A stretch of 64,000 nt of DNA, from positions 1,432,902 to 1,496,901 of the forward strand of contig NZ_OX296583.1 of assembly GCF_946463545.1 (NCBI RefSeq), written 5' to 3'. Source of the DNA: Methanothermococcus thermolithotrophicus DSM 2095. GTDB taxonomy: Archaea; AGJL01; Methanococci; Methanococcales; Methanococcaceae. The stretch's first letter is position 1, and each line of letters begins with the position of its first letter. The notes under the pieces are model-generated. The model was not told the origin of the DNA and searched no databases. It saw only the letters and a list, made by a program, of their open reading frames with translations. Made by a program: the position numbers and the translations under genes. Below, piece after piece: positions 13,541 through 47,299 of the stretch.

Positions 13541-13541
13541 A

Positions 13542-28751: not shown

Positions 28752-29282
28752 TTGAAGCATTGTTTAAAACTTGGAATGGTGAAAAGGATGGATTTAGAAA
28801 GGCTTTATGTTACCCAAGCCCTTTGTGAATCAAATGTTTTTGAAAAGTTAAGAATGATTATTGCAGAGAAAGTATCTGGAATTTATGATGTTAAAATTAC
28901 AAACACATTAAATAACAAATACTATTTTTTGAAATTCGTAGTTAAAGCCACAACTGAAAACTACACAAAACTCTGTGAAGTTTTGCAAAACAACGGAGTA
29001 ATATTGATAAACTGTTATGAGCTAATTTTTCCATCATATAAGATTACAATCAAAGGGGATGCTGAAAAGTGTTTGACAATTCAGAATGAAATATTGAAGA
29101 CACTTCTATCATATGGCTCAGTACCTTTAAAAACTGAAATGAATTCGGATGATTTCATAGTGGCCACATGTGATATAATTGTTACAAACAAAGATCCATC
29201 TAAATCCATGAGCTTTTTGGAAATTATGAGAAAAAACAGTGATTTGAAGTTTAAAATAATCCCGATTACAGGATACGACTGA
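28752..29282 (+). CDS. Hypothetical protein
   Basis: ORF only. No motif recognised. Confidence 0.3.
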   Translation: MKHCLKLGMVKRMDLERLYVTQALCESNVFEKLRMIIAEKVSGIYDVKITNTLNNKYYFLKFVVKATTENYTKLCEVLQNNGVILINCYELIFPSYKITIKGDAEKCLTIQNEILKTLLSYGSVPLKTEMNSDDFIVATCDIIVTNKDPSKSMSFLEIMRKNSDLKFKIIPITGYD

Positions 29283-29346
29283 TAGTGCAGTAATATTTTA
29301 CAGTAATAAAAGATTTACAGTAATATTGTATATTCTGTAGGGATTT

Positions 29347-31200: not shown

Positions 31201-31585
31201 GATTTCATCTCGTTTATTTTAATCTAAATAAAATTCACTTCAATTATTTTAATTCTCCTTGTTAAATTGTAAAGATTGCCGTCCCCTAATATAGTGATGT
31301 GCAATTTCAATTAGTATATTACACACATTTAAATTAAATCGAGACAAATTCCAAGGAATTTTAGACTCACAAAACCATCGGTTTCGTCGAGAACATAAAA
31401 TATTGTTTAATTTGAAAATATGACAATTAAAAATAAATTTCAGGTGCAGTTTATTCGTAATACACACTCTCTATAAAACACCGACTACTATTACTACCAT
31501 TGTAACATAGTATATAATAATATATAATATTAAATTCTTAAAATTCAACGTACTATATTGTGTAAAAAATATCAAGGGGGTAACA

Positions 31586-32416
31586 ATGAATAATTTTAAA
31601 AGTGCTATTACAGGGTTTATTCTATTACTATTAGTCGGGGTTATTGGGGTAACCGGAATATCATTCGCACTGGATGGATGGTACATCGTAGATGAAACCG
31701 AAGTAGGAATTGTAAAAACATTTGGAAAAATAAACCAAGAACCTGTAGGTGCAGGATTACATTTCAAATTACCAGTTGTTCAGTCAGTCGTAAAAATGAA
31801 TACTTACGAAAAAACATTAGATATGACTCAAAAACAAGGGAACGCAATAAAAGCGTTAACAGCTGAAGGATTACCTGTAGTCATTGATATATCGATACAG
31901 TACAAAATCAATCCTAACAAAGCACCAGAGTTGTACGCCACTATAAAAAATCCAGAATCATGGATGACGAGTAGAATAAGGGCAAAAGTAAGAGATATAA
32001 TTGCCCAATATACTGTAGAGGACCTATATACAGACAGGAGAACAGAAGTTCAAGAAAAAATTGCATCTGCAGTTCAAAAAGAGTTTGACAGTAAGGGAAT
32101 AATGATAACTGCCACGTTGATTAGGAATATTGATTTGCCAGATCAGGTTGAAGGTGCCATTGAACAGAAACTGAGGGCAAAACAGGAAGCAGAAAAAATG
32201 AGGTTTGAAGTACAAAAAGCGAGATTAGAGGCAGAAAAGAAAATTGTTGAAGCTCAAGGGCAGGCAAATGCTACAGAGATTATGGCTAAAGCCATTAGAA
32301 AGAATCCAGAAATTCTTGAATATAAAAAACTAGAAGTTTTGGAAAAATTGGCTGAAAACAACAACAAAGTGTTCGTTGTTCCTGGTTCGAATGATTTGTT
32401 ACTTAACGTAAATTAA
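31586..32416 (+). CDS. SPFH/band-7 (stomatin/prohibitin-like) membrane protein
   Basis: N-terminal transmembrane helix and an SPFH core, with a C-terminal coiled coil (...EAEKMRFEVQKARLEAEKK...). GGGGT ribosome-binding site. Confidence 0.8.
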   Translation: MNNFKSAITGFILLLLVGVIGVTGISFALDGWYIVDETEVGIVKTFGKINQEPVGAGLHFKLPVVQSVVKMNTYEKTLDMTQKQGNAIKALTAEGLPVVIDISIQYKINPNKAPELYATIKNPESWMTSRIRAKVRDIIAQYTVEDLYTDRRTEVQEKIASAVQKEFDSKGIMITATLIRNIDLPDQVEGAIEQKLRAKQEAEKMRFEVQKARLEAEKKIVEAQGQANATEIMAKAIRKNPEILEYKKLEVLEKLAENNNKVFVVPGSNDLLLNVN

Positions 32417-32787
32417 AGTGATTATTTTTGTTTTACTATTCTCTTTTTTCATTAGGGAGTTTTGGTTTTTTTGTAATTGGTGGTTTTGTTTTACGTTTAC
32501 TTTTACTATTTTCTTTCTCTTTTTTCTCGTCTTTAAAGATGAGTTTTTCAAACAAAATCTACATGTATGGGTGGGCGTATGTGAAAGACAATATAATGAT
32601 GGACATGAATAAAGAACAATTAAAAGAATAATTATGGGTTTAAGGAAGTGTTTATCGAGATAATTTATACAATATGATCTGTGAAACAATGTTTTTAAGT
32701 GAAGTAACATACTGTTGAAGTTATAGTGATTTGAATCGTGCTTATGAATTTCATCTGCTGCTGAGCTCAGGTGGCATATCGAATAAC

Positions 32788-33456
32788 TTACCTTCCAAAT
32801 TTAATAGCGTCTTTTCTACATGCACTCATACACTCAAAGCACCTTACACATTCCATCTGGTCTATTTTATCAACATCAACTATTTTTATTTGCATTGGGC
32901 ATTTGAACTCACACAACCTGCAACCTATACATTTATTCTTATCGAGCTCTAATTTAAATATTGAGAACCTTGCAAGTATACTTAATAACGCTCCTACTGG
33001 ACAGACATACTTACAAAAGAACCTTGGGTAAATAAAGCCCAAAACCAAAAATAAAGCCAACAATAGGTATGAGAATTCATATAAATCAATAAACGCTCTA
33101 ACCCCCAATACATAAGCTAGGACTATTATCGAAACCAATACAACATACTTAAAATACTTCAATTTATTGTGTATATGCTCTGGAACAGTTGGTAGTTTTT
33201 TTAATCTGGATATTTTTACTCTTGCTTGATAAACCAAATCAAACAAGAATCCAAAAGGACACATCCACCCGCAAAATACCCTCCCCGCAATAATTGCTAA
33301 TATTATAATAACAATTTTTACATTGATATATGCATTCCCACTTAAAATAAATCTTACAATAAACCCTATAATACTTAAATAAAAACCAGCAACAACCAGT
33401 GCACGTATAAAAAAGAATGTTTGAGAGATTTTTCTTAATATTTGTATTTTATCCAT
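32788..33456 (-). CDS. NapH/MauN-type membrane-bound 4Fe-4S ferredoxin
   Basis: Transmembrane helices plus two CxxCxxCxxxCP clusters (CIGCRLCEFKCP and CVRCFECMSACRKD). Confidence 0.6.
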   Translation of the reverse strand: MDKIQILRKISQTFFFIRALVVAGFYLSIIGFIVRFILSGNAYINVKIVIIILAIIAGRVFCGWMCPFGFLFDLVYQARVKISRLKKLPTVPEHIHNKLKYFKYVVLVSIIVLAYVLGVRAFIDLYEFSYLLLALFLVLGFIYPRFFCKYVCPVGALLSILARFSIFKLELDKNKCIGCRLCEFKCPMQIKIVDVDKIDQMECVRCFECMSACRKDAIKFGR

Positions 33457-33950
33457 AATCCCACCATTTATAAATAAATGTCGTTTTATTATATGATAAA
33501 ACCTTCGGTTTTGTCGATTAGTTTTTTAAAAACAACAATATTAGTAAACTCCTAATTTTACAACCTACATTTAAATTTTAAGTATAAAAAGGTTTTTAAC
33601 TAATTATTTAAAAAGGTATGGCACAAAAATTAAGCAATTTGTGTAAAGAATATATGCAATTATTCACAAAAATAATAAATTAGTATTTTTTTAGTATTAT
33701 CAAAATAGATAGTTTATTAATTTTCCTTTTTAAAAATATAAAAAATATGCCATTGTAATTTACAAAGGCATAATATGCATTATAACAGTTTCGAGTTTTA
33801 CTTAAAGGAAATTCGAAACTTAATTTATAATTGTGAATGTAATAAAGTGATATTATTTTTATCCTTTATCCATTTTGGACAAAATTAAAAGTACTCCAAA
33901 AAAACCAAAATATTATATATTCTAAAAATCAAATTATATTTTGTGATATT

Positions 33951-34478
33951 ATGAGTAATTTAATAGTGGTAGATTATGACAAAGATGCTGAGAGAAAGAG
34001 GATTGATTACCTAATCGAAAGATGGTCAAATAAAGGAAATTTGGAGAAAATAAGAAAGATGGCTATAATAGCAGATATAGATGACGTGGATGGATTTGTA
34101 AAGGATATTATGTCCCGTTTGGAAGGAAATCCTGAAGAGAAAGTGAGGGTCTATGAAATTAAAGAATTGAAAAAAACAATATCTTCAAAAAAAACCACAC
34201 TGAGCTATAAGATTACCGATAAAAAAGAAGCTGTAGAGGGTTTTTTAAAATATCTTATGATAAAACTCGGTGCAAGCTACGAATGTTCTGTAAATGGTAC
34301 AAAAAAATACGAAGTATACACAAAAAAAGGGAATTGTTCCATTTCAATCAAATTAAAAGAAAATAATGAAAATAAATTGATAATAAACTTTGAAATTGAA
34401 GGTTACGGCGAAAGTGTGGATTTAATAAAAAATAAAATTGACAATGATATGAAATTATTTATTGAGGGGTTATTATGA
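33951..34478 (+). CDS. Hypothetical protein (first gene of the co-directional 33.9-45.4 kb cluster)
   Basis: ORF. A palindromic operator-like motif lies at 33749-33772 upstream. Confidence 0.3.
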   Translation: MSNLIVVDYDKDAERKRIDYLIERWSNKGNLEKIRKMAIIADIDDVDGFVKDIMSRLEGNPEEKVRVYEIKELKKTISSKKTTLSYKITDKKEAVEGFLKYLMIKLGASYECSVNGTKKYEVYTKKGNCSISIKLKENNENKLIINFEIEGYGESVDLIKNKIDNDMKLFIEGLL

Positions 34479-34584
34479 GTCTGTTTTCAGAGGGGAATTA
34501 TGAACAATTAGATAAACTAAAACAAAAAGCAAACAGAGTATTAAGGGATGGATACGATATAATATATGAACCTTATGAAAAAGG

Positions 34585-36210
34585 GTGGAGTTATGGAATA
34601 GAATAAAAGAAAACTATGAAAAATACAAAGATGGGGAATGCGGGACTTTTTCAAAAGACCTTGACAATGCCGTAAGAAGAGATTTTGAATGGGCATTAGC
34701 AACACTTGCATTTAGTTTTTACCATAACAACGAATCATTTCCAGCAATTAAGCGATATAGTTTTAAGGAGCTCGAACTTGTGGAGTATATTTTAAAATAT
34801 AACGTATTTGAAATCTGGACAGCAGATGATATTTTAAGGGAAATAAGCAAAGCAAATAGAGACGGCACAGATAAAACCTTAAACCTTCTTAAAGAATATT
34901 ATAACAACATAGGAAAAAAAGTTGATGAAATTATCAAAGACCACACGATAAAACTTCCAATAAGGGATTATGCCCAAACAAAATGGAAAGAATACAAAAC
35001 TAAAATGGATGAAGCAATATTCAGGGCAATGAAGGAAATAGATTGGTTTAGTGATTTTATAACGGGCGTAGATAATAAAATCCAAAAACTTGAAAATGAA
35101 ATTTACGAGCTCCGTGATTTTGTAAGGGTGGAAAAGAGAAGGTTGAGGGATGAACTCAAACGAGAAAAAGAAATAGAACTGTCAAAAATTGAGGAAATGA
35201 AAGAAGAGTTAAAAAGAAGGTTTGAGAGGGAAAAAGAAAAGATAAGAATAGAAATTGAAATGGAGAAAAATAGGGAGCTCCGAGAGAAACTAAACAAAGA
35301 AATTGAATATATTGAAGAGGATTACAGGGACTTTATTGATGAGTTAAATGAAAAAATAGAATCACTGGAATCAGAAAAAACAGAATTAAAGGAGAAAAAT
35401 GAGAAATTAACTGACCTTTTAAAAAGGATAAGGGATGCTAAAAAGGAAGGTTCGAGATTTGTAAGAACAGAAAACGCATTATCCTATGAGGAATGGTTTA
35501 TTGGACGATTGGATAAAAAATTAGATGAAATGAGGAAAACGGGCGTGAAAGTTGAAAATAAAACTTTTAAAATAATCTCTATTGAAGAAGTATTTAATCC
35601 AAACAATTCAGTGGAACTTCCTAAAAATAAACAAATAAAAGCAGTGTTAAAGGAGAAAAAGCTTAATCCGTTTGGTAAAAAGATGGAAGTAATGTTGAGG
35701 GGGATGTTCTTAGCAAATGGGGGAAATTACAAAAAAATGGGTTTTGATGTTTATCCAATATCATTGGGTAAAATAATTGAGGTGGTGGAGAATGTGAAAG
35801 ATGGCAGTTTTGATAAAATTGTGTTACTGATTGCCTCACCAACGGGTTTTGAGGATGAAGTAATTAAATTTGTCAATTCTGATGACTTTAAAATGAGATA
35901 TTTATCCAAAAAAATTGCTCTCGCACTTCTCGATGTTGAAACTGGAAATTTATACTATAATGAAGTGGATGAGTATGCAAAGGCATTTGCACCATTGATG
36001 AGCTTGGAATTTGATAAGGAGAAGGTTGAAAGATTGAAAAAGTATATTGATGAGAACATATTTATAAAAAGATATATTACGCTGGAAGAGGCTATCAATG
36101 AAGTTGGGGATGAAAGGGTGGCAAAAAAGGTATTTTATGAGTACGAATCTTCTGGAAAGGGGGAAACTAAATATTATAAAGAAATTGGTTTTGTTTTGTT
36201 AAAAAAATAA
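34585..36210 (+). CDS. Hypothetical protein with long central coiled coil
   Basis: GTG start. Residues ~170-300 are a K/E/R-rich heptad coiled coil flanked by globular domains. Confidence 0.35.
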   Translation: MELWNRIKENYEKYKDGECGTFSKDLDNAVRRDFEWALATLAFSFYHNNESFPAIKRYSFKELELVEYILKYNVFEIWTADDILREISKANRDGTDKTLNLLKEYYNNIGKKVDEIIKDHTIKLPIRDYAQTKWKEYKTKMDEAIFRAMKEIDWFSDFITGVDNKIQKLENEIYELRDFVRVEKRRLRDELKREKEIELSKIEEMKEELKRRFEREKEKIRIEIEMEKNRELREKLNKEIEYIEEDYRDFIDELNEKIESLESEKTELKEKNEKLTDLLKRIRDAKKEGSRFVRTENALSYEEWFIGRLDKKLDEMRKTGVKVENKTFKIISIEEVFNPNNSVELPKNKQIKAVLKEKKLNPFGKKMEVMLRGMFLANGGNYKKMGFDVYPISLGKIIEVVENVKDGSFDKIVLLIASPTGFEDEVIKFVNSDDFKMRYLSKKIALALLDVETGNLYYNEVDEYAKAFAPLMSLEFDKEKVERLKKYIDENIFIKRYITLEEAINEVGDERVAKKVFYEYESSGKGETKYYKEIGFVLLKK

Positions 36211-36255
36211 TTAGAAAATAATTAGGAAACTAACTAAAATAAAATAGGTGAAAAA

Positions 36256-36897
36256 ATGAGTTTATGGAACAAAATAAAAGGGAAATTACAAAAAAATCCA
36301 ATAGAAAAATTAACAATAAGAGACTTAGAGGGGGAAAGAATTAGATTAAAAAGTAAGTTAGATAGGGTGAAAAAAGAGATAAAATCATTGGATAAGCAAA
36401 AAAAGCAATTATTCAAAGAAGGGGTTGGTGCCGATAAACTCACAAAAAAAATGCTTGCACAGGACATAAAAAGTGTTGAAATGGAAATGAGATTAAAGTA
36501 TAAAAGCTTCCAAACTTATCAGAAGCAGTTTAATTTTGTAAATAACCTGTTAATTGTTAAAAAATACGAAAAAGAATTGAAAAATATAGGAATGTGGAAT
36601 AAAATTAACAACATACAACCTGAGCTCTTGGAGTTAAAACTGAGTGATATAATACTTGATGGTAAGGAGTTTGACCAAACTGTTGAGGGGTTGAATAAAG
36701 TATTTGAAATGAGAATTGATGATTTTGATGAGGAAGTCGATAGCACAGAGAAAAAACTATTCGATGCATGGGGGCAGGCTGAAAGTGGTGATATGGAAGC
36801 TGATGAGGTTGTGAGCAATTTGAACTTGGATACTGATGGGGAGGAAGAAGAGGACGATGAAGAATTATTTAAGAGATTAGAGAAGGAGAATCAATAA
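36256..36897 (+). CDS. Snf7/ESCRT-III-like (PspA/Vipp1 superfamily) protein with acidic tail and MIM1-like motif
   Basis: Basic N-terminal helical hairpin and an acidic C-terminus (DTDGEEEEDDEE). The terminal EELFKRLEKE resembles the MIT-interacting motif D/ExxLxxRLxxL. Confidence 0.55.
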   Translation: MSLWNKIKGKLQKNPIEKLTIRDLEGERIRLKSKLDRVKKEIKSLDKQKKQLFKEGVGADKLTKKMLAQDIKSVEMEMRLKYKSFQTYQKQFNFVNNLLIVKKYEKELKNIGMWNKINNIQPELLELKLSDIILDGKEFDQTVEGLNKVFEMRIDDFDEEVDSTEKKLFDAWGQAESGDMEADEVVSNLNLDTDGEEEEDDEELFKRLEKENQ

Positions 36898-37068
36898 TAA
36901 TTTAATTTTTTATTTTTTTGAATATAATGTTATGTGGGATATTGTGGTATTTGATAAGATTAAAATCCCGATATCTTATGAAGTAGTGGCATCAGCGGAG
37001 GTAATAATCCATAAGATTAAATTAGGTTTCAAATGTGATTAAAATATCTCAAAAAATGAGGGGATAAA

Positions 37069-37704
37069 ATGTTAGGTAAATTAAAAAGTCTGTTCTCTAA
37101 AAATAAAAATCCATTAGATATGCCATTAGATAAACTAAACGAATCAAAAATAAAATTGGATATTCAAGTTAAAAAATTAGAAGATGAGCTCTCAAAAATA
37201 GACGACCAAATTACAATATTGTTTGGAAAGGCAAAGAGCTCTAAAAGCAAAAGTGAAGAATTGACAATTGCTACAAAAATAAAAACTCTCAGTCAAAGAA
37301 AAAAGCAATTACAAAATTCTCATGCTCTATTAAACAAACAGGTGAGATTCGTAGATAATCTTTTAGTAATAAAAGAAAATGAAGAGATTTTAAAATCCAC
37401 GCCTTTATGGAACACACTAAACAGTATGTCGCCACAGGAGTTGGAAAATTATCTAATTAATATGAAAATAAACAGTGAAAATATTATCGGAACACTAAAT
37501 AACGCTCTCGGTATCACCGATGACATGCTGAGCTCGGCATCAGAAGAACATGATGAGGATATTGCTGATATTTTAAATACAATACATGCGGTTAAAGAGG
37601 GGGAATTGGATATTGACGATGCAAAGGAAATAGTATCCGATGAAAAGAAGCAGGAAAAAGAAGACGATTTTGAAAAGGAATTGAAAAGAATATTAGAAGA
37701 ATAA
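37069..37704 (+). CDS. Snf7/ESCRT-III-like protein, second paralog, with MIM1-like C-terminus
   Basis: Same architecture as the first paralog. C-terminal EKELKRILEE. Confidence 0.55.
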   Translation: MLGKLKSLFSKNKNPLDMPLDKLNESKIKLDIQVKKLEDELSKIDDQITILFGKAKSSKSKSEELTIATKIKTLSQRKKQLQNSHALLNKQVRFVDNLLVIKENEEILKSTPLWNTLNSMSPQELENYLINMKINSENIIGTLNNALGITDDMLSSASEEHDEDIADILNTIHAVKEGELDIDDAKEIVSDEKKQEKEDDFEKELKRILEE

Positions 37705-37755
37705 TTATTATCACTATTTTTTAATAATTATATTATCATATTTGGGGGGATTATA

Positions 37756-38976
37756 TTGGAAATTGATTTATCCGGAGCTCTGATGAGTCAGTTTAAAAGA
37801 GCTAAAAAAGAATATGAGATAGCAAAGGAGAAAAAGAACGAAAGTATTGCTAAAAAAAAGGCGTTAGAATGTGCCAAATTATTGAGACAAATAGCAAAGT
37901 ATGATGGATACAATGAAAAAAGCTATTTGGAGAAAGCTAAAAAATGGGAGTTAGTGGCAAATAACATAGAAGAAGTATTTAATCCATCAAAAGCTAATAA
38001 ATCCAAACCTACAAAAAAATCAGCACCATCAAATAAACCAAACTCATCAAACACCACAGAGGATGAGGCAGAAGATGAAATTGATAAGTTTAAAAATTTT
38101 GTGAAAAATAATTTAATACAAAAATCCACTATGAAGTGGGACGATATAGGGGGGTTAGAAGAAGTAAAACAGCTTATGATGGAAACCATAGTAATATCAG
38201 CACTTCAAAAGCCTGCATCAATACAACCATGGAAAGGGATTTTATTATTTGGACCACCAGGAACAGGTAAAACACTATTAGCTTCTGCATGTGCTGGAAG
38301 TTTGGAAGCAACATTCTTTAATGTGAAGGCATCATCCGTATCAAGTAAATACTACGGCGAATCTTCAAAAATTGTAAGTGCATTATATGATGTTGCAAGG
38401 GAGCTCCACCCAAGTATTGTATTTATTGATGAAATCGATGCCTTAACAACAAAGAGGAGCGATGGAATAAGTGAGGCATCAAGGAGGATGTTATCAACTT
38501 TATTAACAGAATTGGATGGTTTTCAAGATAAGGGGAGCGATAGGTTAATATTAACACTTTCGGCAACAAATACGCCATGGGATTTAGATGAGGCGGTGCT
38601 TTCAAGGTTTTCAAGGAGAATTTATATTCCTTTACCTGATAAAGAAGCTACAAAGGAAATTATTAAAATTAACACAAAAGGGGTTAAGTTGAATGTTAAT
38701 TTAGATGAAATTGCGGATAAGTGTGTGGAAAAACTCTATTCTGGTAGGGATTTAAAAAATCTCTGTCAGGATGCTATTTGGAATATGATTAGGGATGTAA
38801 ATAAGGATTTGTATAAAATGGCTAATTTGTCCTATAAAGAGTTGAAGAGGAGGAAGTTAAAAACAAGAGCTCTGACTGATGATGATTTTGAAGAGGCATT
38901 TAAGAAAATAAAAAGCCCTTTAACTAAATCTGAAATTGAGAAGTATGAGAAATGGGGGGAGGAATTTGGAGGATAA
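37756..38976 (+). CDS. Vps4/CdvC-like AAA+ ATPase with N-terminal MIT-like three-helix domain
   Basis: Walker A GPPGTGKT. Vps4-specific SEASRR motif and the ATNTPWDLDEAVLSRFSRRIYIPLPD segment are present. N-terminal 75 aa are helical. Confidence 0.85.
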   Translation: MEIDLSGALMSQFKRAKKEYEIAKEKKNESIAKKKALECAKLLRQIAKYDGYNEKSYLEKAKKWELVANNIEEVFNPSKANKSKPTKKSAPSNKPNSSNTTEDEAEDEIDKFKNFVKNNLIQKSTMKWDDIGGLEEVKQLMMETIVISALQKPASIQPWKGILLFGPPGTGKTLLASACAGSLEATFFNVKASSVSSKYYGESSKIVSALYDVARELHPSIVFIDEIDALTTKRSDGISEASRRMLSTLLTELDGFQDKGSDRLILTLSATNTPWDLDEAVLSRFSRRIYIPLPDKEATKEIIKINTKGVKLNVNLDEIADKCVEKLYSGRDLKNLCQDAIWNMIRDVNKDLYKMANLSYKELKRRKLKTRALTDDDFEEAFKKIKSPLTKSEIEKYEKWGEEFGG

Positions 38977-39022
38977 TTAACATATTTTTTTAATTTTTTA
39001 TATCATTCAATAAGGTGATATA

Positions 39023-40586
39023 ATGAAGTTTAGGAATTTGTTGATTGGGATATTATTAGTTGGGATTTTTGTAAATGTTGGAGTTGTTTTTGGAGAGGAT
39101 GTTGTAAAGCCAGAGTGGGCATATCATTTAGGTGATTGGGCAAGTGCTATATCGATAACTCCTGATGGAAAATATATCGTTGCTGGAACGGGGGGCTATG
39201 GAGGTAATGGTGATTATAAAGTTTACTTATTTAATAATAAAGGAAACTTACAGTGGTCTTATAAAATAGATGGTAAAGTAGAATCTGTGGCAATAACTCC
39301 AGATGGTAAGTATATAGTTGCGGGAACATGGTTTGACAAAAATGGAAATAATCATAGAGATTCAGAAGACTATGGGAAAGTATATCTTTTTAATAAAGAT
39401 GGAAATTTATTGTGGAGTCGTAATTTAAATCCTACAGTATATGATGTTTCAATATCTTCTGATGGAAAATACATTGTTGTAGCATATTCCAATAAGCTTT
39501 CTGTTTTTGATACCAAAGGGAATCTATTATGGTCATATGAAACATACAGGTGGATATACTCTATATCGATAACTCCTGATGGAAAATATATCGTTGCAGG
39601 AACTGGCAGCACCGGTGACTATGGTAGGGTTTATCTATTTGATTAATGAAGATAATGTATTGTGGAGTTATAATGCGGGTTTTGTTAGATATGTTTCCAT
39701 AACTCCGGATGGAGAATACATAGTTGCTGGAAAAACCCCTCATGGAACAAATAATGGTCAAGATGACGAAAATACAATTTATTTATTTAATAAAAATGGA
39801 AAATTACTTATGAGTTATAATGTTAAAGGAAAAATTCGTGAAAAATCTATATCAATATCACCGAATGGTAATATTGTTGTTGGTACCTGGGTTGATGAAA
39901 ATAAAGACAATGTAATGGACCCTATGGATACAGGATATATTTACTTTTTTGATAGTGGTGGATTGAAATGGAAGTACCATACTAATGAAGGTATCCACTC
40001 TACATCCGTAGATTTTAATGGCAAATATATAGTTGCTGGAGGTACTCATGGTTCAATATACTTGTTTAATAATAATGGAGATACATTGTGGAATTATAAA
40101 TTACAACGATTAATTACGGTTTCTATAGACTCATATGGAAAATACATTGTTGTAGGGTCATTATTTGATATTTATTTATTTGATAACCAAAAAATATTAG
40201 AAATTTTAAAAGAAAAAGACAATGGAACACTTGAAATATCATCAAATCTACCAAATGCTAAAATTTATATTGATGGCAAATATAGTGGATTAACTCCAAA
40301 AACTATTAAATTACCGCCTGGAACTTATGAAATTACACTAAAAAAAGAAGGATACAGCGATTATAAGACCATACTAACCATCAATGGTGGAGAAACTAAA
40401 AATTTAAACGTTAATTTAAAACCTGTAGTTGCAGAAACAACTAATACACCCAATACTAAAGAAGAAAAAGTTTCTGTGGGGACTAATACTAATAAGGATA
40501 ACAACAACCTGTTATTTATAATCATGGGGCTATTAATAACTGGCGGAGTAGTAGGTGGGATTTATTATGCAAAAAAAAAGGCATAA
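39023..40586 (+). CDS. Secreted, C-terminally membrane-anchored PQQ-like beta-propeller protein, interrupted by a 1-nt frameshift near 39641-39646
   Basis: Signal peptide, then repeated ...ISITPDGKYIVAGT...VYLFN..GNLLWSY blades. Deleting one nt in GATTAAT restores ...RVYLFDNEDNVLWSY. C-terminal transmembrane helix. Confidence 0.7.
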
Positions 40587-41775
40587 GGGAGAATCTAAGA
40601 TTCCAGACTTTCCAAGAGAATTATTAAACAAATACATTCCACTACAAAAATTAGGAGAAGGTGGATTTGGAAAAGTATTTAAAGTTAAAAGAAAAGGCGG
40701 AACATTACCATTAGCAATAAAAACACCTAACTTAAACGAAAAAGCTAAAAAATACTTATTAAAAGAAATCAAAGCATGGAAAAATCTTAATCATCCAAAC
40801 ATAGTTAAACTATATGATACATTCACAGAACCAATCCCGCATATAGAAATGGAATATATTGAAGGATGTAACATAAATGGAAAATCAGTAAAAGATTTAG
40901 ATGATTATCCAAAACCATTAAATCCAAAGGAAAGTATTAAACTAATAAAACAAATAGCAGAAGGGTTAAAACACGCTCATGACAAAAACATAATCCACAG
41001 AGATATTAAACCATCGAACATCCTATTAACTCAAAATTTAACACCAAAAATAACAGACTGGGGATTGGCAAAAATAGGGGCAAAATCATCAACAGCAACA
41101 ACCACAAAGGGATTAACTTTACTATATTCAGCACCGGAGCAAATAGATGAAGAAGAATACGGAAAGACAGATAAAAGAACGGATATTTATCAGTTAGGAG
41201 TTTTATTCTACGAGTTATTAACCGGTAGATTACCTTATGAAGGAACTTCACCAGCTCAAGTATCATTAAAAATAGTAAATCCAGATAAAAAACTACTACC
41301 GCCATCAAAAATAAATCCTAATTTGTCAATATTTGATGGAATATTTGAAAAACTCTTGGCAAAGAAAAAGGAAGATAGATTCCAATCAATAGATGAGTTT
41401 TTAGAGGCTTTAAATTCATTAGGAGAACTAATCAAAGAAAAAGAAGGGTTCAAAAACACATTAACCAAAACCATACAAAAACTAAAAACATCAACTGACA
41501 AAAAAGAGATTGAAACATTAACTAAAGAGCTCATAAACTCAACAACAAAACTTGCTTTAAACTGCGCAGATACAAATGATAAAGTTGGATTATTGGAGGC
41601 ATTGGAAATATTAAAAGATCATGCCAAATCAGATGAAAATAGAAAGGACTTGGAAGGAGCAATAAAACATATAGAATATTTAATAAAAGAAAGCATCCCT
41701 CTTGGAAAAGATACTAGGGAGAAACTTAAAGTTTTAATCAATAGGATTAAGAGAGATGAAAATAAAATATATTAG
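40555..41775 (+). CDS. Ser/Thr protein kinase (Hanks-type) with helical C-terminal domain
   Basis: GEGGFGKVFKV, AIK, HRDIKPSNILL, DWGLAK and APE motifs are present. Confidence 0.85.
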   Translation: MGFIMQKKRHKGESKIPDFPRELLNKYIPLQKLGEGGFGKVFKVKRKGGTLPLAIKTPNLNEKAKKYLLKEIKAWKNLNHPNIVKLYDTFTEPIPHIEMEYIEGCNINGKSVKDLDDYPKPLNPKESIKLIKQIAEGLKHAHDKNIIHRDIKPSNILLTQNLTPKITDWGLAKIGAKSSTATTTKGLTLLYSAPEQIDEEEYGKTDKRTDIYQLGVLFYELLTGRLPYEGTSPAQVSLKIVNPDKKLLPPSKINPNLSIFDGIFEKLLAKKKEDRFQSIDEFLEALNSLGELIKEKEGFKNTLTKTIQKLKTSTDKKEIETLTKELINSTTKLALNCADTNDKVGLLEALEILKDHAKSDENRKDLEGAIKHIEYLIKESIPLGKDTREKLKVLINRIKRDENKIY

Positions 41776-42043
41776 ATTTGGTAAGAGGTTCCATCCTTGT
41801 TAGGTATTGATTTGATTTCTTGCCAAATAGGTATTTTCAATATATAAATGTAAAATAAAAAATAAATTTGTGTTTATGATTTACCAAATACTATATACTA
41901 TAAGAGTCCAAGGTGAAATTATGAAAAAATATATCTGGCAATTCTAATGTCGTTATTGGCAACTGTAACTTTTTGCGGATGTATTGATGAATATTCAAAA
42001 TACATAAATGATGTATCTAATGTAGTATATCGGTGCATTATAT

Positions 42044-43030
42044 ATGGAGGGGGGAAATATGATAGAATATATTTGGGAATCATTCACATATATATTTAAA
42101 GATAAAAATTGGAAAAAAAAGCTTGTTAAGGGTGGGGCAATAGGGGTAATACCTCTACTTAATATTTCATTACTTGGCTATATGGTAGATATGATAACTC
42201 TTATTTATAAAGGTAAAAATAATGAGTTGCCTGAATTTGATATATCTAGTCAATTTATCGATGGATTTAAGATATCCGCAGTTCTTTTTGTATATTTTAT
42301 ATTATTTTATATATTGCTTATTGTGATTCTCGGTATTTTTTCGGTAATTTTCAAAGACAATATTTTTAGTGTTATTGGTATTGTGTGCTTCGCAATATTT
42401 ATGTTATTCATGCATATCGCATTTTCACATTACATATATACCAACAAAATATCTTCATTTTTTGAATTCACTACATTATTTAGAATACTTAAAAAAACAT
42501 GGGTTAATATCCTAATTTTTGATATTATTTACTATATTATTATGGGCTTTTTAGCTATTGCGATATATATAATGGCAGCCCTATTTTCCATGACAATTAT
42601 ATTAATTCCTGTGGCTATTTGGTTATTGGGGGCATTCTATTATTATTCCTGCATAGTATTTGGTTATTTCTGTGGAAAAGTATACTTAGAAGGAATTAAT
42701 AAAAAACCAATAACTATGGGCTCCAAAGTGTTACCGACCAAGACGGTATCAAACAATAACAAAGATTTAAATCTACTTAATTCCTACCTATTAGGGGCTA
42801 AGGAGCTATTACCCGGAGCATTGGATGATTTTCGAAACAACAACTTAAATGATGCCATAAAAAAATGGAATAAATCATTGGAATACTATAAAAAAGCAGA
42901 GAAAATAGCAAAATCAAACAAAGATGAAGAATTAATTTCATCCCTAAATAATAACATTAAATCAGTAGTCCATAACATATTAGATGCAAAAATTAAATTA
43001 GTATCTGATAAAATTGGGGGGATGGTATGA
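42044..43030 (+). CDS. Polytopic membrane protein with helical C-terminal domain
   Basis: About 5 transmembrane helices followed by a TPR-like or coiled region. Its stop overlaps the start of kinase 2 (ATGA). Confidence 0.45.
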   Translation: MEGGNMIEYIWESFTYIFKDKNWKKKLVKGGAIGVIPLLNISLLGYMVDMITLIYKGKNNELPEFDISSQFIDGFKISAVLFVYFILFYILLIVILGIFSVIFKDNIFSVIGIVCFAIFMLFMHIAFSHYIYTNKISSFFEFTTLFRILKKTWVNILIFDIIYYIIMGFLAIAIYIMAALFSMTIILIPVAIWLLGAFYYYSCIVFGYFCGKVYLEGINKKPITMGSKVLPTKTVSNNNKDLNLLNSYLLGAKELLPGALDDFRNNNLNDAIKKWNKSLEYYKKAEKIAKSNKDEELISSLNNNIKSVVHNILDAKIKLVSDKIGGMV

Positions 43031-44531
43031 TAAAGGAAATATTAAATGAAATAAATGCTATTGAGAGATTTTTAAAAAATCATAGGGAGTATTTAGGGGA
43101 GGAGTATGCCAAATATCAAACCACATTAAACGAGCTCAGGTTAAAAGTTAAACTAAAAGAAATCGAAAATAATGTAATGGATGCTTTAACATTGAAATCA
43201 GATGAAGAGTATTTAAAAGCAAGGGATCTCTTAAAAAAATCTTCTAACGATATTGATAAATTAGAGGATGAAATGATAAATTTAAAGATAAAAACATTTA
43301 ACAGTCAAATTACTAACTTAAAAAATCAAATAAATAATGAATTAAACTTCATAAAAAATTTGTTATTAGGTGAAGACTCCTCAATAAATGCGCCATATAA
43401 TTCCTCATCGGTTAATTCTTCAAATCCTATAAATCAATCATTTAGTGGAGAAAACGAATTATTGAATATACTAAATGAATTATTATCAAAATATCAAAAT
43501 CCTATAAAAATTGGGGAAGGGGGATTTTCCCATGTATTTAAAGTAATTAAAAATGGAAAGACAGTAGCCCTAAAAGTCCCGAAAGAATTAACTGAAATTA
43601 CTGGGGAGTTATTCCTTAGAGAAATAGGAAATTGGAAAAAATTAAAACATATCAACATTGTTCGACTTTATTATAGTAATATTTATCCATATCCATACGT
43701 GGAAATGGAATACTGTGAAAAGGAATTAAATAAAATAAAAAATAATTTAGAGTTAAAAGAAGCAGTTTTATTATTTTTTGAAGTGTTAAATGGACTGAAA
43801 TATGCACATAGTAAAGGGATAATTCATAAGGATTTAAAACCACACAACATTTTAATAAACAACAACATACCAAAAATTACAGATTGGGGACTATCAAAAG
43901 AAACTACTTCAAAATCCACAACTATAAACGCTTTAACTCTACAATACTCAGCACCAGAACAAATAAGCAGGGGAACAATCGATAAAAGGACGGACATTTA
44001 TCAAATGGGGGTAATCCTATACGAATTAACAACAAAAAACTACCGTTTAATGGTAATGAGTTTGACATAATCGATAGTATTAAAAACGAAATGCCGCCAA
44101 AACCATCGAAATTAAATCCTTTAATTGATGAGGAGTTGGAAAATATTATCTTAAAATGTATCCAAAAAGACAAATCCAAAAGATACCAATCAGTAGAAGA
44201 ATTGCAGAAGGATTTATCAGAATACCTAAACATACAACTTACAACTAACCTTACAGCTTCAAAAACAAATAAAGATTTTAGTAGAAGTATATTCTATTGT
44301 GCTGATTTGGTTTTATTCCACTTATTAAACAACGATTTAGGGGATGCTTTAAATTATCTCTACGATTTAAAACATTATGCAAATAAGAATTGCTCTGAGG
44401 AAATAATAAATTCCGTTGATAATCTAATAAAAGCTATCGAATATCGGATTAAAGAAGGGATAAAGGAGCCATCCGATGAGATAAAAATAAAGGCGAAAAT
44501 AGTAGTAAATAAGGTTAAGATGAGATTTTAG
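43027..44531 (+). CDS. Ser/Thr protein kinase with N-terminal coiled coil, interrupted by a frameshift in an A6 run (44034-44039)
   Basis: GEGGFSHVFKV, HKDLKPHNILI and DWGLSK motifs are present. Reading A7 instead of A6 fuses 43027-44070 to 44091-44531, giving ...ILYELTTKKLPFNG...KCIQKDKSKRYQSVEEL. Confidence 0.8.
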
Positions 44532-44539
44532 GGGGTAAT

Positions 44540-45430
44540 ATGGAAATAATAAACAAATTTCTAAAAAAAATTGGATATAAGAAAGATGGAGAAGAAAAAA
44601 AGGACAAATCTAAAACCAAAATAAAAATTGAAGAAGAAAAAACCATGGATATCGAAATTCCAAAAATTGAACCTACTGAAAATTTTAATCGTGATGAAAT
44701 TGTTTTTGAGGAAGATAATGCCTACGGTATATCCCACAAAGGAAATAGAACAAACAACGAAGACAATATCTTAATTAAAAAAATAAAAGATACCTACATA
44801 TTAGCAGTTGCAGATGGTGTCGGAGGGCACAGCTCAGGAGATGTTGCATCAAAGATGGCAGTGGATATTTTAGAAAACATTATCATGGAAAAATACAATG
44901 AAAACCTATCAATTGAAGAGATAAAAGAACTTTTAAAAGATGCATACATTACGGCACACAACAAAATAAAAGAAAACGCTATTGGAGATAAAGAGGGAAT
45001 GGGAACAACACTAACAACTGCAATAGTTAAAGGGGATAAATGCGTTATAGCAAACTGCGGGGATAGTAGGGCTTATTTAATTAGAGATGGAGAAATAGTT
45101 TTTAGAACAAAAGACCACTCTTTGGTTCAGGTTTTAGTAGATGAAGGACATATTTCAGAGGAGGACGCAAGGCATCATCCAATGAAAAATATCATTACCT
45201 CAGCATTGGGATTGGATGAATTTAAGGTAGATGATTACGAATGGGATTTAATTGATGGTGATGTATTATTGATGAGCTCCGATGGGCTTCATGATTATGT
45301 CAGTAAGGAAGATATTTTAAAAACTGTAAAAAATAATGATCACCCAAAAGATATTGTAGATGAATTATTCAATACTGCATTAAAAGAGACAAGGGACAAT
45401 GTGAGTATTATCGTATATAAAAAGCAATAA
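44540..45430 (+). CDS. PP2C-family Ser/Thr protein phosphatase
   Basis: ADGVGGH, GTTLT, CGDSRAY and SSDGLHD motifs are present. Confidence 0.85.
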   Translation: MEIINKFLKKIGYKKDGEEKKDKSKTKIKIEEEKTMDIEIPKIEPTENFNRDEIVFEEDNAYGISHKGNRTNNEDNILIKKIKDTYILAVADGVGGHSSGDVASKMAVDILENIIMEKYNENLSIEEIKELLKDAYITAHNKIKENAIGDKEGMGTTLTTAIVKGDKCVIANCGDSRAYLIRDGEIVFRTKDHSLVQVLVDEGHISEEDARHHPMKNIITSALGLDEFKVDDYEWDLIDGDVLLMSSDGLHDYVSKEDILKTVKNNDHPKDIVDELFNTALKETRDNVSIIVYKKQ

Positions 45431-45723
45431 GTAGTAAATACTTTGCTTACAGGATGTATGAAGAAGAAATGGTTGGAAAATGGCTGTTTATATTTTATTT
45501 AACAGAGCTCCAATATATACTGCATGAATAAGACGTTCTCTATCTCAGTGTATTATGTGGTTAGTGAGCTCACTTATTAAAAAATAATCTCGAGTTTCTA
45601 TTAAAGGAAATACAAAATCCATTATATCGATAGAGCTCTTATACTACAACTATACAATGGCGTAAGTTGGCTAAAAATAGTTTAGTAGATCCTTTTGCGA
45701 TTCTACCTTACTGTTTCAAGTAA

Positions 45724-46458
45724 CTACACCACATAATCTAAGAGCATTTTTCCTTTTTCACTTATTTTTATATATTTTGACCTTCCAATCTTTTCTGGCT
45801 CTTTTATTAATTCCCATTCTAAAAGTTTTTCAACAACATTCTTATTAATCCAAACTAAATCATTATGACTTGAAGATTTAGATGAAACCATGCTGTTCTT
45901 TCTCCATTTTATAACTTTTTCTAAATCTTCCTTAGTTATGCCTTTATCTTTATTATTAATCATCTCAGTTATAATTCTATTGTTGGATTCCCCCTTTAAA
46001 ACTTCCTCTTTTGTTAATAGGGTAAGTTCTTTTATAGTTAGCCCCCTGTCCCCTGATAGTTCAATAATCTTTAAAAATATTAATAATTCATCTCTTGGAA
46101 GATTCACTTTAAAAGGGTAGATAAATTTTACGTCTTTAACACCATATGTTCTTGGAAGGGAATTGATATGTTCATACTCATCCTTATATTTCTCTATTAA
46201 TACTTCTTTTTCCTCATCAGATAGATTTTCATAAAGATTTTCGGGAATTACATAATATGGAATTATTTTCGAATTGTCCTTATTTAATACCATAGCACAG
46301 GTCATTCCTGCAATACACCCAATTGTAGAGCCAGATGATACGTTAATATAAAATTTAACATCTCCAAAAGATTCTCTTTCACTTACGATGATGGATTTCA
46401 TCTTTTGAATATTTCTTCCAAATTGTTGTAAATTGTAATAAGGGGCAGTTTCCTTCAA
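45724..46458 (-). CDS. Putative winged-helix transcriptional regulator (Csa3-like architecture?)
   Basis: The C-terminal ~60 aa resemble a winged helix-turn-helix (...RSKYIKISEKGKMLLDY). The N-terminal domain has a Rossmann-like pattern. Confidence 0.3.
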   Translation of the reverse strand: MKETAPYYNLQQFGRNIQKMKSIIVSERESFGDVKFYINVSSGSTIGCIAGMTCAMVLNKDNSKIIPYYVIPENLYENLSDEEKEVLIEKYKDEYEHINSLPRTYGVKDVKFIYPFKVNLPRDELLIFLKIIELSGDRGLTIKELTLLTKEEVLKGESNNRIITEMINNKDKGITKEDLEKVIKWRKNSMVSSKSSSHNDLVWINKNVVEKLLEWELIKEPEKIGRSKYIKISEKGKMLLDYVV

Positions 46459-46475
46459 ATAATTTAGATAAGAAT

Positions 46476-47299
46476 ATGATTGAGTATGATGACATTTACG
46501 GCATCAGATTATCCAAATTATATGGAATTAAAAACAATTATCACGATATATTTGATAACTGGAAAGTAGACCTTGTAAAATCGGCTATTGTAAAAAACAA
46601 CGATGAAGAAAGAAGATTAATGTTTGTTGCAATCACTCGGGCAAAGCAGTATGTATTTTTCACGTCCCACAATCCATCGGAGTTTTTTAATGGACTTTTG
46701 AAGAATATGGTAATGGTGTTGAAGAAATTGAAGAAGTTGAAATAAAACCTGCTGAACAATTTAATGAATCTTATGAAAAAATAGATATAAAGCTTCCAGA
46801 ATGTGAAAAAACTAAAACTGTTCTTGCTGTGCATGATATTATGAGGTATAAACCGTCTGCAAGTGAAAAAGGAAAGGCGGGAAAAGGTGTTGAATTTGGA
46901 AAGTATATTCACCATGTTGCTGAGCAAATAGCTCTTGGAAGGGAAGTTAAAGAAGATGTTGAAGAAGTTAAACGAATAAAAAAATTCATTTCAGAACTTA
47001 ACGCAAATGAGTTATTAACTGAAATTGAATGCTCCCTTCCATTAGGTGATTACATAATTAGGGGAGTTATTGATTTAATAGCAATATATGATGATAGGAT
47101 TGAAATAATTGATTATAAAACAGATGTTTCCAAAAATAACCATTTTGAATATGTTAAACAACTATCAATATATTATCATGCTGTTAAGGAATACTATAAT
47201 AAAAAAACTGTATGTAAAATATACTATGTGAGCTCCGATGAAGTTGTTGAAGTTGAGCCATTGGATTTGGAGTCTATCATAAAAGAACTTAAAAAATAA
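46476..47299 (+). pseudogene. Remnant of a UvrD-family helicase with C-terminal RecB-like PD-(D/E)xK nuclease (5'-truncated, frameshifted)
   Basis: Helicase motif VI LMFVAITRAKQYVFF is present. The nuclease motifs GVIDLIAIYDD, EIIDYKTD and QLSIYYHA lie in another frame. Confidence 0.55.

Follow-up and report, generated by a model that had tools for sequence, protein, structure and literature searches.

A damaged copy of the 'Main clade' euryarchaeal ESCRT locus, with Ser/Thr kinase and phosphatase genes, in Methanothermococcus thermolithotrophicus

Gene content and layout of the cluster

An ESCRT-III/Vps4 cluster occupies positions 33951-45430 of the window, the 64,000-nucleotide stretch of Methanothermococcus thermolithotrophicus DNA analysed here, with all open reading frames (ORFs) on the + strand. 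As to organism identity, the region matches GCA_000376965.1 at 100% over 20.6 kb. Comparison of the window sequence with near-identical assemblies shows that the cluster comprises nine genes, three of which are broken by a total of four frameshifts, and that four of the nine either bear or adjoin a frameshift. The ten co-directional genes originally described from the letters alone (hereafter the sequence-only reading) are on the strand proposed, but their number falls to nine once the split ORFs are rejoined. The features are as follows:

33746..33772, no strand assigned: imperfect palindrome TATGCCATTGTAA-T-TTACAAAGGCATA, 13-nt arms, 12/13 complementary (92%), 1-nt spacer
33951..34478, + strand: adaptor-like protein, 175 aa, arCOG08177
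34475..36210, + strand: putative coiled-coil scaffold, assigned to arCOG09748, 578 aa when intact, overlapping the 175-aa gene by ATGA
36256..36897, + strand: ESCRT-III-like protein a, 213 aa, basic N-terminus and long helical hairpin
37069..37704, + strand: ESCRT-III-like protein b, 211 aa, paralogue of the 213-aa protein, tail DFEKELKRILEE
37756..38976, + strand: Vps4-like AAA+ ATPase, 406 aa, TTG start, N-terminal helical MIT-like region, one AAA cassette, Vps4_C
39023..41775, + strand: receptor Ser/Thr kinase, 916 aa when intact, split into three ORFs here
42044..43030, + strand: DUF4013 polytopic membrane protein, 328 aa (Pfam DUF4013 E 1e-10), cytoplasmic helical tail
43027..44531, + strand: cytoplasmic Ser/Thr kinase 2, 501 aa when intact, split here
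44540..45430, + strand: PP2C-type Ser/Thr phosphatase, 296 aa (Pfam PP2C_2 E 3e-19)

Pfam matches across the cluster comprise AAA with Vps4_C, beta-propeller with PEGA, two Pkinase domains, DUF4013 and PP2C. The PADLOC catalogue of anti-phage defence returned generic kinase-domain and AAA-domain matches only, and none for the adaptor, the ESCRT-III-like proteins or the DUF4013 protein. An anti-phage defence system was rejected as a candidate, as the distinctive components match no PADLOC defence family.

The close spacings initially reported were recovered: 46 nt separate the Vps4-like gene from the propeller (38977-39022) and 8 nt separate kinase 2 from PP2C (44532-44539), while the membrane gene and kinase 2 share a 4-nt ATGA overlap at 43027-43030. 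A further 51 nt lie between the second ESCRT-III-like gene and the downstream Vps4-like ATPase gene. Two intergenic gaps are wide, i.e. 171 nt at 36898-37068, with T6 and T7 runs at its start, and 268 nt at 41776-42043, and oligo-T runs are also found 3' of the 211-aa gene and of the Vps4 gene. Because of these gaps and runs a single ten-gene operon is not evident; they suggest several transcription units across the cluster.

The upstream palindrome is non-random, as its half-site TGCCNTTGTAA occurs six times in the window (0.13 expected) and builds four window sites, the palindrome among them. The operator-like site noticed earlier exists. Its assignment to the cluster is not supported, as the palindrome was not found upstream of orthologous clusters and lies ~140 nt upstream of the closest cluster-side TATA-like box. 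A T-rich TATA-like box directly follows it on the minus strand, and the palindrome may act at a divergent promoter.

Proteins of the cluster and their lesions

The sequence-only reading had placed two proteins of unknown function, of 175 and 541 aa, at the head of the cluster. Their position stands, and both can now be named. The predicted model of the 175-aa protein, with a Cas2-like N-terminal domain of ferredoxin fold and a TBP/helix-grip C-terminal domain resembling KA1 and adaptin-appendage domains, confirms it as arCOG08177, and displays the Cas2-like plus TBP-fold/DUF3568 arrangement of this family in the 'Main clade' euryarchaeal ESCRT system defined by Makarova et al. (2024, mBio; PMC10936438). 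The 541-aa ORF is a piece of a 578-aa gene: a frameshift at the A5 run at 34573-34577 leaves a 43-aa ORF and a 541-aa ORF starting with GTG at 34585, and an A6 version of the run restores the conserved N-terminus FEKRVxLWNRIKENY. Intact orthologues measure 574-615 aa and overlap the gene upstream. The second leading gene is assigned to arCOG09748 by position and architecture; its place, intact length, coiled-coil middle and conservation are consistent with that family. A profile search against the PDB gave coiled-coil noise only, with no winged-helix match.

The paralogous 213-aa and 211-aa proteins (25% identity, E 1e-12) adjoin each other in all loci compared, and correspond to the ESCRT-III-like family that the literature names 'Snf7 family protein' (arCOG09747; PMC10936438). 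No Pfam Snf7 match was obtained for either window protein, even at E<10, and the ESCRT-III label given to them earlier was for this reason inferential. Within the family, Snf7 is matched by 3 of 67 members (best E 2.5e-4) and is the sole Pfam family matched by more than one of them. The family profile found a single PDB match, a CdvB, at E 0.35, and hhalign against CHMP4B gave 4% probability. The architecture is that of the superfamily, i.e. a long alpha1-alpha2 hairpin, then shorter helices, then a flexible acidic tail. The acidic tail of the 213-aa protein is MIM1-like (EELFKRLEKE), and in Thermococcales orthologues the tail has shrunk to an acidic stretch with a terminal L or F. The NCBI annotation of the 213-aa family reads 'chromosome assembly protein'.

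The ATPase carries the single AAA cassette (Pfam AAA E 1.2e-37) and C-terminal Vps4_C helix (E 1.3e-6, exceeding the gathering score) that characterize Vps4/CdvC. NCBIfam CdvC matches residues 103-404 with E 1e-59, at 202 bits far under the family cut-off of 650, and spastin and katanin in the PDB align end to end. The TTG start is backed by the N-terminus MxVDLSGPL conserved among orthologues. The N-terminal 115 aa have no sequence match in Pfam or the PDB. Upon hhalign comparison of 16 orthologous N-termini with human VPS4, an alignment of 85% probability (E 6.7e-6) was obtained that is confined to MIT helix 3 and the linker, in partial support of a putative MIT domain.

The separate secreted beta-propeller described earlier does not exist as such. 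In near-identical assemblies one 916-aa ORF spans propeller and kinase 1, and the reported overlap between the two is a frameshift at the A9 run at 40563-40571 (A9 instead of A8) within this one gene; a second lesion, an extra T at 39643, lies inside the propeller and not in a long homopolymer. The intact protein is composed of a signal peptide, an 8-blade PQQ/WD-like propeller, PEGA, a transmembrane segment, a Hanks kinase (motifs HRD, DWG, APE) and a helical tail of ~115 aa. NCBIfam PknB_PASTA_kin matches the kinase at E 3.5e-61, under the family cut-off. The idea of an extracellular propeller sensor is strengthened, since the kinase itself carries the propeller as its ectodomain. Similar ectodomain-transmembrane-kinase fusions are found in M. 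aeolicus, Methanotorris, Methanocaldococcus and Thermococcus, and the ectodomains vary among related loci (PEGA, DUF2341, propeller, DUF4013).

In kinase 2 a coiled coil at the N-terminus precedes a non-RD Hanks kinase domain (motifs HKD, DWG, APE), and a helical tail follows; the gene is broken by A6 instead of A7 at 44028-44033. The kinases share a conserved tail domain, which in the Methanocaldococcus locus is present on a TPR protein too. The preceding DUF4013 gene is intact in the window, with an A9 frameshift (42105-42112) in two other assemblies, and in M. okinawensis-like loci DUF4013 likewise immediately precedes a kinase. For the phosphatase, NCBIfam Stp1/IreP (Stp1_PP2C_phos) gave E 1.4e-63, under the family cut-off.

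The frameshifts of this genome fall in the scaffold and both kinases, and only the ESCRT-III/Vps4/PP2C core is intact. It is conceivable that the frameshifts are homopolymer sequencing or assembly errors and that living cells carry an intact locus, as the genome has ~30% GC and is rich in homopolymer runs, and three of the four frameshifts sit in runs of A5-A9. We regard this as unlikely. The fourth (TT at 39643) lies outside any long homopolymer, and the draft contig AQXV01000044.1 and the Logan assembly ERR9919981 give exactly the sequence of the window. Moreover, at least 11 independent disruptive mutations occur among near-identical assemblies, every one inside the cluster, whereas the flanks (~16 kb, with a comparable number of homopolymers) hold no coding indel. 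The lesions in other assemblies are of different types, namely a 4-nt duplication, a nonsense codon, a 212-bp deletion and a 10-kb deletion that removes both ESCRT-III genes and Vps4 from one assembly, and the scaffold is broken in several others. This set of mutations, confined to the cluster, is a new observation. Since the receptor kinase, kinase 2 and scaffold are all frameshifted, the window sequence probably encodes a non-functional signalling arm. Such repeated inactivation in near-clonal genomes shows that, in some conditions at least, cells can do without the sensor arm.

Conservation and proposed function

The genes for the 175-aa, ~578-aa and two ESCRT-III-like proteins are colinear in 25 loci spanning Methanococcales, Thermococcales, Archaeoglobus (Archaeoglobales) and an unclassified archaeal MAG. 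The ESCRT-III-like pair was also seen in Geoglobus, and two Methanomicrobiales MAGs (Methanomicrobiaceae and Methanoregulaceae) carry the same genes in shuffled order; Vps4 was found in nearly all loci. The gene set is thus linked across at least four archaeal orders, and recurrence of its order in other genomes, the check attached to the sequence-only reading, was borne out. Neighbours within 10 kb were counted for the 20 loci whose flanks reach 5 kb or more. All 20 have at least one Hanks kinase, and eight have PP2C, including all Methanococcales loci, where it lies at the cluster end; within 10 kb, PP2C is missing from most Thermococcales and Archaeoglobales loci.

The uneven distribution of PP2C, together with the varying number and position of the kinases, the interspersed unrelated genes (TPR, ATPase_2, an ion-channel/pentapeptide protein) and the intergenic oligo-T runs suggestive of separate transcripts, could be taken to mean that the kinases and PP2C make up a general signalling cassette that is no more than a neighbour of the ESCRT genes and shares no function with them. 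However, a Hanks kinase is retained in every flank-sufficient locus, in at least four orders, despite local shuffling, and retention through rearrangement is a signature of functional linkage; likewise, the kinase-type tail domain is found on another protein of the locus. The absence of a shared function therefore appears improbable. The coupling of ESCRT-III/Vps4 to kinases, PP2C and a sensor, put forward in the sequence-only reading, is backed both by this conserved linkage and by a published comparative-genomic reading (PMC10936438); no experimental study of the system's function was found in the literature.

As overall best explanation we favour, with somewhat better than even confidence, an ESCRT membrane-remodelling locus controlled by the kinases and PP2C. 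In such a mechanism the adaptor and scaffold would nucleate ESCRT-III filaments at the cytoplasmic face of the membrane, and the MIT-like N-terminus of Vps4 would bind their acidic tails, with remodelling or disassembly driving budding, scission or repair. The phosphorylation state of ESCRT components or cargo would be set by the membrane kinases and PP2C, together with the tail domain common to the kinases, such that an extracellular or envelope signal switches remodelling on and the phosphatase resets it. Division is FtsZ-based in Methanococcales and Thermococcales. As Methanococcales divide with FtsZ, the output is likely to be the formation of vesicles, the sorting of proteins or the maintenance of the envelope, and not cytokinesis.

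Alternatively, the kinases may not target ESCRT assembly but instead phosphorylate membrane or envelope proteins that are then sorted as vesicle cargo, the mark being erased by PP2C. This is the reading favoured in PMC10936438, and the resemblance of the adaptor C-terminal domain to adaptin-appendage and KA1 interaction modules speaks for it. Conversely, domain searches of the locus proteins turned up neither an FHA domain nor any other known phospho-reader, and we consider marking of cargo possible, at a clearly lower level of confidence than control of remodelling. The two are compatible with each other, and the present data do not separate them.

Comparison with known systems

The Cdv machinery of Sulfolobales and Nitrososphaeria (CdvA, CdvB paralogues and CdvC) similarly encodes ESCRT-III-like filament proteins together with a Vps4/CdvC ATPase, and its locus is likewise headed by a non-ESCRT-III protein. 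As ESCRT-III and Vps4 perform cytokinesis in TACK archaea (PMC10936438), and the 213-aa family is labelled 'chromosome assembly protein' by NCBI, the locus might encode a cell-division machinery of the Sulfolobales type with the kinases as cell-cycle regulators. Against this, the host divides with FtsZ, and in FtsZ-containing archaea ESCRT is probably not divisional (PMC10936438). No domain of the CdvA type (PRC barrel plus E3B peptide) was found in any cluster ORF. Unlike the Cdv locus, the cluster has kinases and a phosphatase, and its ESCRT-III-like proteins lack a C-terminal winged helix, which PMC10936438 places on arCOG09748 instead. An essential division role is also hard to reconcile with the 10-kb deletion and scaffold lesions of other assemblies, and we consider a Cdv-like function highly improbable.

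With ESCRT-III of the eukaryotic and Asgard ESCRT-III/Vps4 systems, in which recognition is of the MIT-MIM type, the paralogous pair shares the helical hairpin core, basic N-terminus and acidic tail, and the tails EELFKRLEKE and DFEKELKRILEE resemble MIM1 (D/E-x-x-L-x-x-R-L-x-x). The ATPase similarly shares the single AAA cassette and Vps4_C, and its N-terminal helical region aligns to VPS4 MIT helix 3. By contrast, the locus lacks ESCRT-I and ESCRT-II genes as well as ubiquitin machinery, and its similarity to Snf7/CHMP is marginal. The bacterial PknB/PstP and Stk1/Stp1 pairs resemble the signalling arm in that a nearby PP2C accompanies a single-pass receptor kinase whose extracellular part is a repeat domain; in the present cluster, however, the ectodomain is propeller plus PEGA instead of PASTA, and the partners are ESCRT components instead of cell-wall synthesis genes.

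The region is a damaged copy of the already catalogued 'Main clade' euryarchaeal ESCRT locus, and the Vps4 and kinase of M. thermolithotrophicus are listed in the supplement of PMC10936438. The parts described there recur, with a Vps4-family ATPase (arCOG01307) near the ESCRT components, i.e. Snf7-family ESCRT-III (arCOG09747), the putative arCOG09748 protein and arCOG08177. Also present are the membrane-associated Ser/Thr kinase (arCOG03682) and Ser/Thr phosphatase, a combination found in many members of the clade, not all. The taxa coincide as well (Methanococcales, Thermococcales and Methanomicrobiales). There is no difference in kind, only in local details: an 8-blade propeller plus PEGA forms the ectodomain of the kinase, as opposed to the mostly Ig-like repeats of the Main clade (PMC10936438), and the coupling of a DUF4013 protein to the second kinase and the four frameshifts are features of the present locus.

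Corrected gene model of the cluster

Between 33951 and 45430, ORFs of at least 140 aa are found on the + strand only, in a window with a G+C content of ~30%, and the following domains were assigned by Pfam:

37756-38976 (+), AAA+ ATPase with Vps4_C
39023-40586 (+), beta-propeller repeats and PEGA
40555-41775 (+), Hanks-type kinase domain, first
42044-43030 (+), DUF4013 membrane protein
43027-44070 (+), Hanks-type kinase domain, second
44540-45430 (+), PP2C phosphatase

The remaining 175-, 541-, 213- and 211-aa proteins gave no Pfam or NCBIfam match, permissive thresholds included. The 213- and 211-aa proteins are paralogues (25% identity, E 1e-12), and the former is 100% identical to one Methanothermococcus protein; likewise, window positions 26256-46897 are 100% identical to AQXV01000044.1 (GCA_000376965.1). 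The sequence-only reading had described ten closely spaced co-directional genes. The cluster is real, as are its spacings (46 nt between Vps4 and propeller, an ATGA overlap between the membrane gene and kinase 2, and 8 nt between kinase 2 and PP2C), but the segmentation was wrong and the number of genes is nine. The receptor kinase is a single 916-aa ORF in other assemblies that are ~99.6-100% identical, whereas three ORFs (207, 335 and 406 aa) are found in the window. Similarly, kinase 2 is a single 501-aa ORF in other assemblies as compared to 347 + 146 aa in the window, and the coiled-coil scaffold arCOG09748 is a 578-aa ORF with a 4-nt overlap with the 175-aa gene (arCOG08177) as compared to 43 + 541 aa. 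Three of the nine genes are broken in the window, by a total of four frameshifts located through base-level alignment:

34573-34577, scaffold, A5 in the window against A6
39643, receptor kinase, extra T in the window
40563-40571, receptor kinase, A9 in the window against A8
44028-44033, kinase 2, A6 in the window against A7

Upon repair, the N-terminus of the scaffold regains the orthologue-conserved FEKRVxLWNRIKENY, and the juxtamembrane segment of the receptor kinase regains the orthologue-conserved YYAKKRHKGESKIPDF. Thus, with single intact ORFs elsewhere and repaired frames restoring conserved residues, the "secreted propeller" and the "kinase 1" that had been taken as separate proteins are one receptor kinase. 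From the N-terminus it comprises a signal peptide, a propeller of eight blades that all carry a GKYIVAG...YLF motif, PEGA, a TM helix and then a basic stretch, the kinase and a tail; the kinase domain keeps the K, HRD, DWG and APE motifs, and the helical tail spans ~115 aa. In kinase 2, a non-RD (HKD) kinase domain is preceded by an N-terminal coiled coil and followed by a helical tail homologous to that of the receptor kinase. The anatomy of the system is thereby clarified in a cultivable methanogen, with the propeller as the ectodomain of a receptor kinase and the DUF4013 membrane protein coupled to a second kinase.

Lesions among near-identical assemblies

The window was compared with 12 assemblies of ~99.6-100% identity, and distinct events were counted. 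At least 11 independent disruptive events were observed, all within the cluster:

34577, 34914 (run 34908-34914), 40571, 42112 (run 42105-42112) and 44033, homopolymer length changes
39643, +T
39776, +ATTT duplication
44306, -T
Q77*, nonsense mutation in the receptor kinase
44288-44500, 212-bp deletion between imperfect repeats, with loss of the kinase 2 tail
35867-45924, 10,057-bp deletion with 2-nt microhomology, in assembly L042

The largest of these takes both ESCRT-III genes, Vps4, both kinases and PP2C. No assembly that spans the whole cluster is free of lesions, and the sites differ. The small lesions are confined to arCOG09748, the receptor kinase, DUF4013 and kinase 2, and no event other than the 10-kb deletion affects the 175-aa gene, the two ESCRT-III genes, Vps4 or PP2C.

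Coding indels were absent from ~16 kb of aligned flanks (19078-33950 and 45431-46897), in which the density of A/T runs is comparable to that of the cluster. If events were distributed uniformly over 27.9 kb, the chance of 11/11 falling in the 11.5-kb cluster would be ~0.41^11, roughly 6e-5. Sequencing error is unlikely as the cause of either the non-homopolymer events or the clustering. That independent lesions are concentrated in the sensor arm is unexpected and new here. One reading of the lesions is that an envelope-sensing ESCRT system undergoes phase variation via the poly-A tracts, another is repeated selection for sensor loss in culture or enrichment, and a third is relaxed selection. 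That the arCOG09748, receptor kinase, DUF4013 and kinase 2 half of the cluster acts as a mutational switch in populations of M. thermolithotrophicus, or is under selection there, is put forward tentatively, as a possibility to which we assign a rather low probability. If the clustering in the sensor arm is real, it would provide a natural set of on/off variants for probing the role of the system. The damage to the type-strain copy matters for transcriptomics, phosphoproteomics and genetics on M. thermolithotrophicus.

Conservation, components and surrounding sequence

Conservation of the locus was assessed by looking up the loci of 213-aa homologues, scanning one genome per species and mapping every component by tblastn. 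The order 175-aa, ~578-aa, ESCRT-III-like a (213 aa), ESCRT-III-like b (211 aa) is retained in 25 loci, from Methanococcus aeolicus, Methanotorris, Methanocaldococcus, several Methanothermococcus, many Thermococcus/Thermococcaceae, Archaeoglobus and an unclassified archaeal MAG. Consequently, the possibility that the gene order is conserved nowhere else, on which the sequence-only reading had staked its proposal, falls away. The same genes are present in rearranged order in Methanomicrobiaceae and Methanoregulaceae MAGs, and a Geoglobus contig carries the ESCRT-III pair only. A Vps4-like gene was found in nearly all loci. Among the loci with 5 kb or more of flank, 20/20 have at least one Hanks kinase no more than 10 kb away, and 8/20 have PP2C, including all Methanococcales loci with enough flank. 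The ectodomains of the kinases are highly varied: M. aeolicus has PEGA alone, Methanotorris has DUF2341 and Thermococcus profundus has a propeller. In M. okinawensis-like loci the DUF4013 membrane domain immediately precedes the kinase, and in the Methanocaldococcus locus the kinase tail domain is also found on a TPR protein. Extra genes in other loci (TPR-kinase, ATPase_2) are inserted precisely where the window has a 171-nt gap. In the M. aeolicus locus (L001), a gene at 10683-12602, inserted between the ESCRT-III paralogues, encodes a TPR protein with kinase and kinase tail domains, which brings the kinases of that locus to three.

The evidence for assigning the 213/211-aa family to ESCRT-III is consistent but weak. 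In the structural model (pLDDT 70), a long hairpin is followed by short helices and an acidic tail that is disordered, and the family profile gave one match in the PDB, a CdvB, at E 0.35. Profile-based searching over 1.84 billion representatives returned 299 relatives, and Pfam Snf7, matched by 3 of 67 sampled relatives, was the only Pfam family matched more than once. An hhalign comparison with CHMP4B (sequence confirmed as CHMP4B) gave 4% probability and is not used as support, and phmmer against the PDB gave nothing useful for the 213-aa protein or the Vps4 N-terminus. The N-termini MSLWNKIKGKL and MLGKLKSLFSK are ESCRT-III-like in appearance, as are the Methanococcales C-termini EELFKRLEKE and DFEKELKRILEE when set beside the MIM1 consensus, which is a lead only. 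In the case of Vps4, the N-terminus MxVDLSGPL is common to 16 orthologues, supporting the TTG start at 37756. The profile of these 16 N-termini aligned with human VPS4 (sequence confirmed as a Vps4) at an hhalign probability of 85%, covering only MIT helix 3 and the linker. The arCOG09748 profile returned apolipoprotein-type coiled-coil noise alone from the PDB, with no winged-helix match. KA1 domains are kinase-associated, lipid-binding modules. They appear as the best compact matches to the AlphaFold model of the 175-aa arCOG08177 protein, an addition to PMC10936438, with which the model (pLDDT 88, two domains) agrees.

The first ATG of the cluster is preceded, at a distance of 39 nt, by a TATA-like ATTATATA. 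Several transcription units are plausible, judging from the T6/T7 runs after the stops of the 213-aa, 211-aa and Vps4 genes (T-runs at 36906, 37717 and 38985) and the 171-nt and 268-nt gaps. An operator-like palindrome had been proposed upstream of the cluster; the site is real (33746-33772), and its half-site TGCCNTTGTAA occurs 6 times in the window as compared to 0.13 expected. These make four palindromic sites:

8566-8576, palindromic site
8859-8869, palindromic site
9611-9636, palindromic site
33746-33772, palindromic site, ~140 nt upstream of the cluster-side TATA-like box

The first three are located in the non-coding, long-ORF-free 8313-10337, upstream of a 1067-aa helicase-like gene. 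On the minus strand TTTTTTATATTTTTAAAAA directly follows the palindrome, as it does at two other sites. The four sites look like the target of one regulator, and that upstream of the cluster is probably a regulator-binding site, which may control either the cluster or the divergent gene. Its proposed role as the operator of the cluster is unsupported; the palindrome was not found upstream of the orthologous clusters of other species and genera. Another inverted repeat, AGTTTCGAGTTT-N10-AAATTCGAAACT, lies at 33787-33820 between the palindrome and the first gene; were transcription to begin near 33780, it could fold into a hairpin within a long 5' leader. A supposed repeat flanking the cluster on both sides (TCGAGTTT...TTAAAGGAAAT) was not upheld on checking, and neither Rfam nor tRNA scanning gave a hit in the window.

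Further features were observed around the cluster:

4950-19078, ~14-kb block with + strand ORFs of 1067, 533, 273 and 998 aa
22503-26261 (-), 1252-aa helicase with intein (Hint, Intein_splicing, LAGLIDADG)
29347-30315 (+), HEAT/Adaptin_N-like repeat protein
31586-32416 (+), SPFH/Band 7 protein
45724-46458 (-), CARF-family protein with C-terminal winged helix

The block is missing from the near-identical metagenomic contigs L035 and L039, with a different junction in L037, and MmeI/Eco57I-type methyltransferase domains are annotated for its 998-aa ORF in L036; the block probably represents a restriction or defence island specific to the strain. The intein helicase is intact in the window, while metagenomic relatives have two ORFs (618 + 645 aa) with ~45-57 nt extra at 22383 and 24350, and several Logan contigs stop at 24350. 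The HEAT and SPFH genes lie 1.5-4.6 kb upstream of the cluster, and PMC10936438 notes such domain types at other archaeal ESCRT loci. In M. aeolicus, Methanotorris and Methanocaldococcus neither gene lies next to the cluster, so their proximity is probably coincidental. The CARF/winged-helix protein just downstream (PADLOC CARF3, E 1e-76; Pfam HFX_2341_N and DUF6293_C) is a candidate ligand-sensing regulator; its gene is followed by UvrD_C and PD-(D/E)XK fragments, and is partly lost in the 10-kb deletion of L042.

Relation to described archaeal ESCRT systems

An anti-phage defence reading of the cluster was rejected because the PADLOC matches were only generic (kinase and AAA). The locus instead belongs with the "Main clade" of euryarchaeal ESCRT systems, described for Thermococcales, Methanococcales, Methanomicrobiales and Halobacteriales and comprising Vps4, ESCRT-III, arCOG09748 and arCOG08177, with membrane-associated Ser/Thr kinases and phosphatases in many genomes (Makarova et al. 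2024, PMC10936438). In that work arCOG09748 is described as a helical domain, coiled coil, globular domain and C-terminal winged helix, and arCOG08177 as an inactivated Cas2-like domain with a DUF3568/TBP-fold domain, and the system was inferred to be specialised in phosphorylation-dependent sorting. In its supplement the ESCRT-III family appears as "Snf7 family protein" (arCOG09747), and Vps4 WP_018153912 and kinase WP_018153911 of M. thermolithotrophicus DSM 2095 are listed. Our literature search found no experimental study of a Main-clade euryarchaeal ESCRT system, and no paper on frameshifts or ESCRT in M. thermolithotrophicus. With the clade described and proteins of this locus listed, the locus is therefore a known kind of system, already catalogued as a comparative-genomic prediction. 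The proposal of a membrane-remodelling system controlled by reversible Ser/Thr phosphorylation and an extracellular sensor agrees with this published prediction and has strong synteny behind it. The window contributes no new kind of system; the Main-clade system to which it belongs represents a predicted link from Ser/Thr phosphorylation to ESCRT-type remodelling outside eukaryotes, Asgard and TACK archaea.
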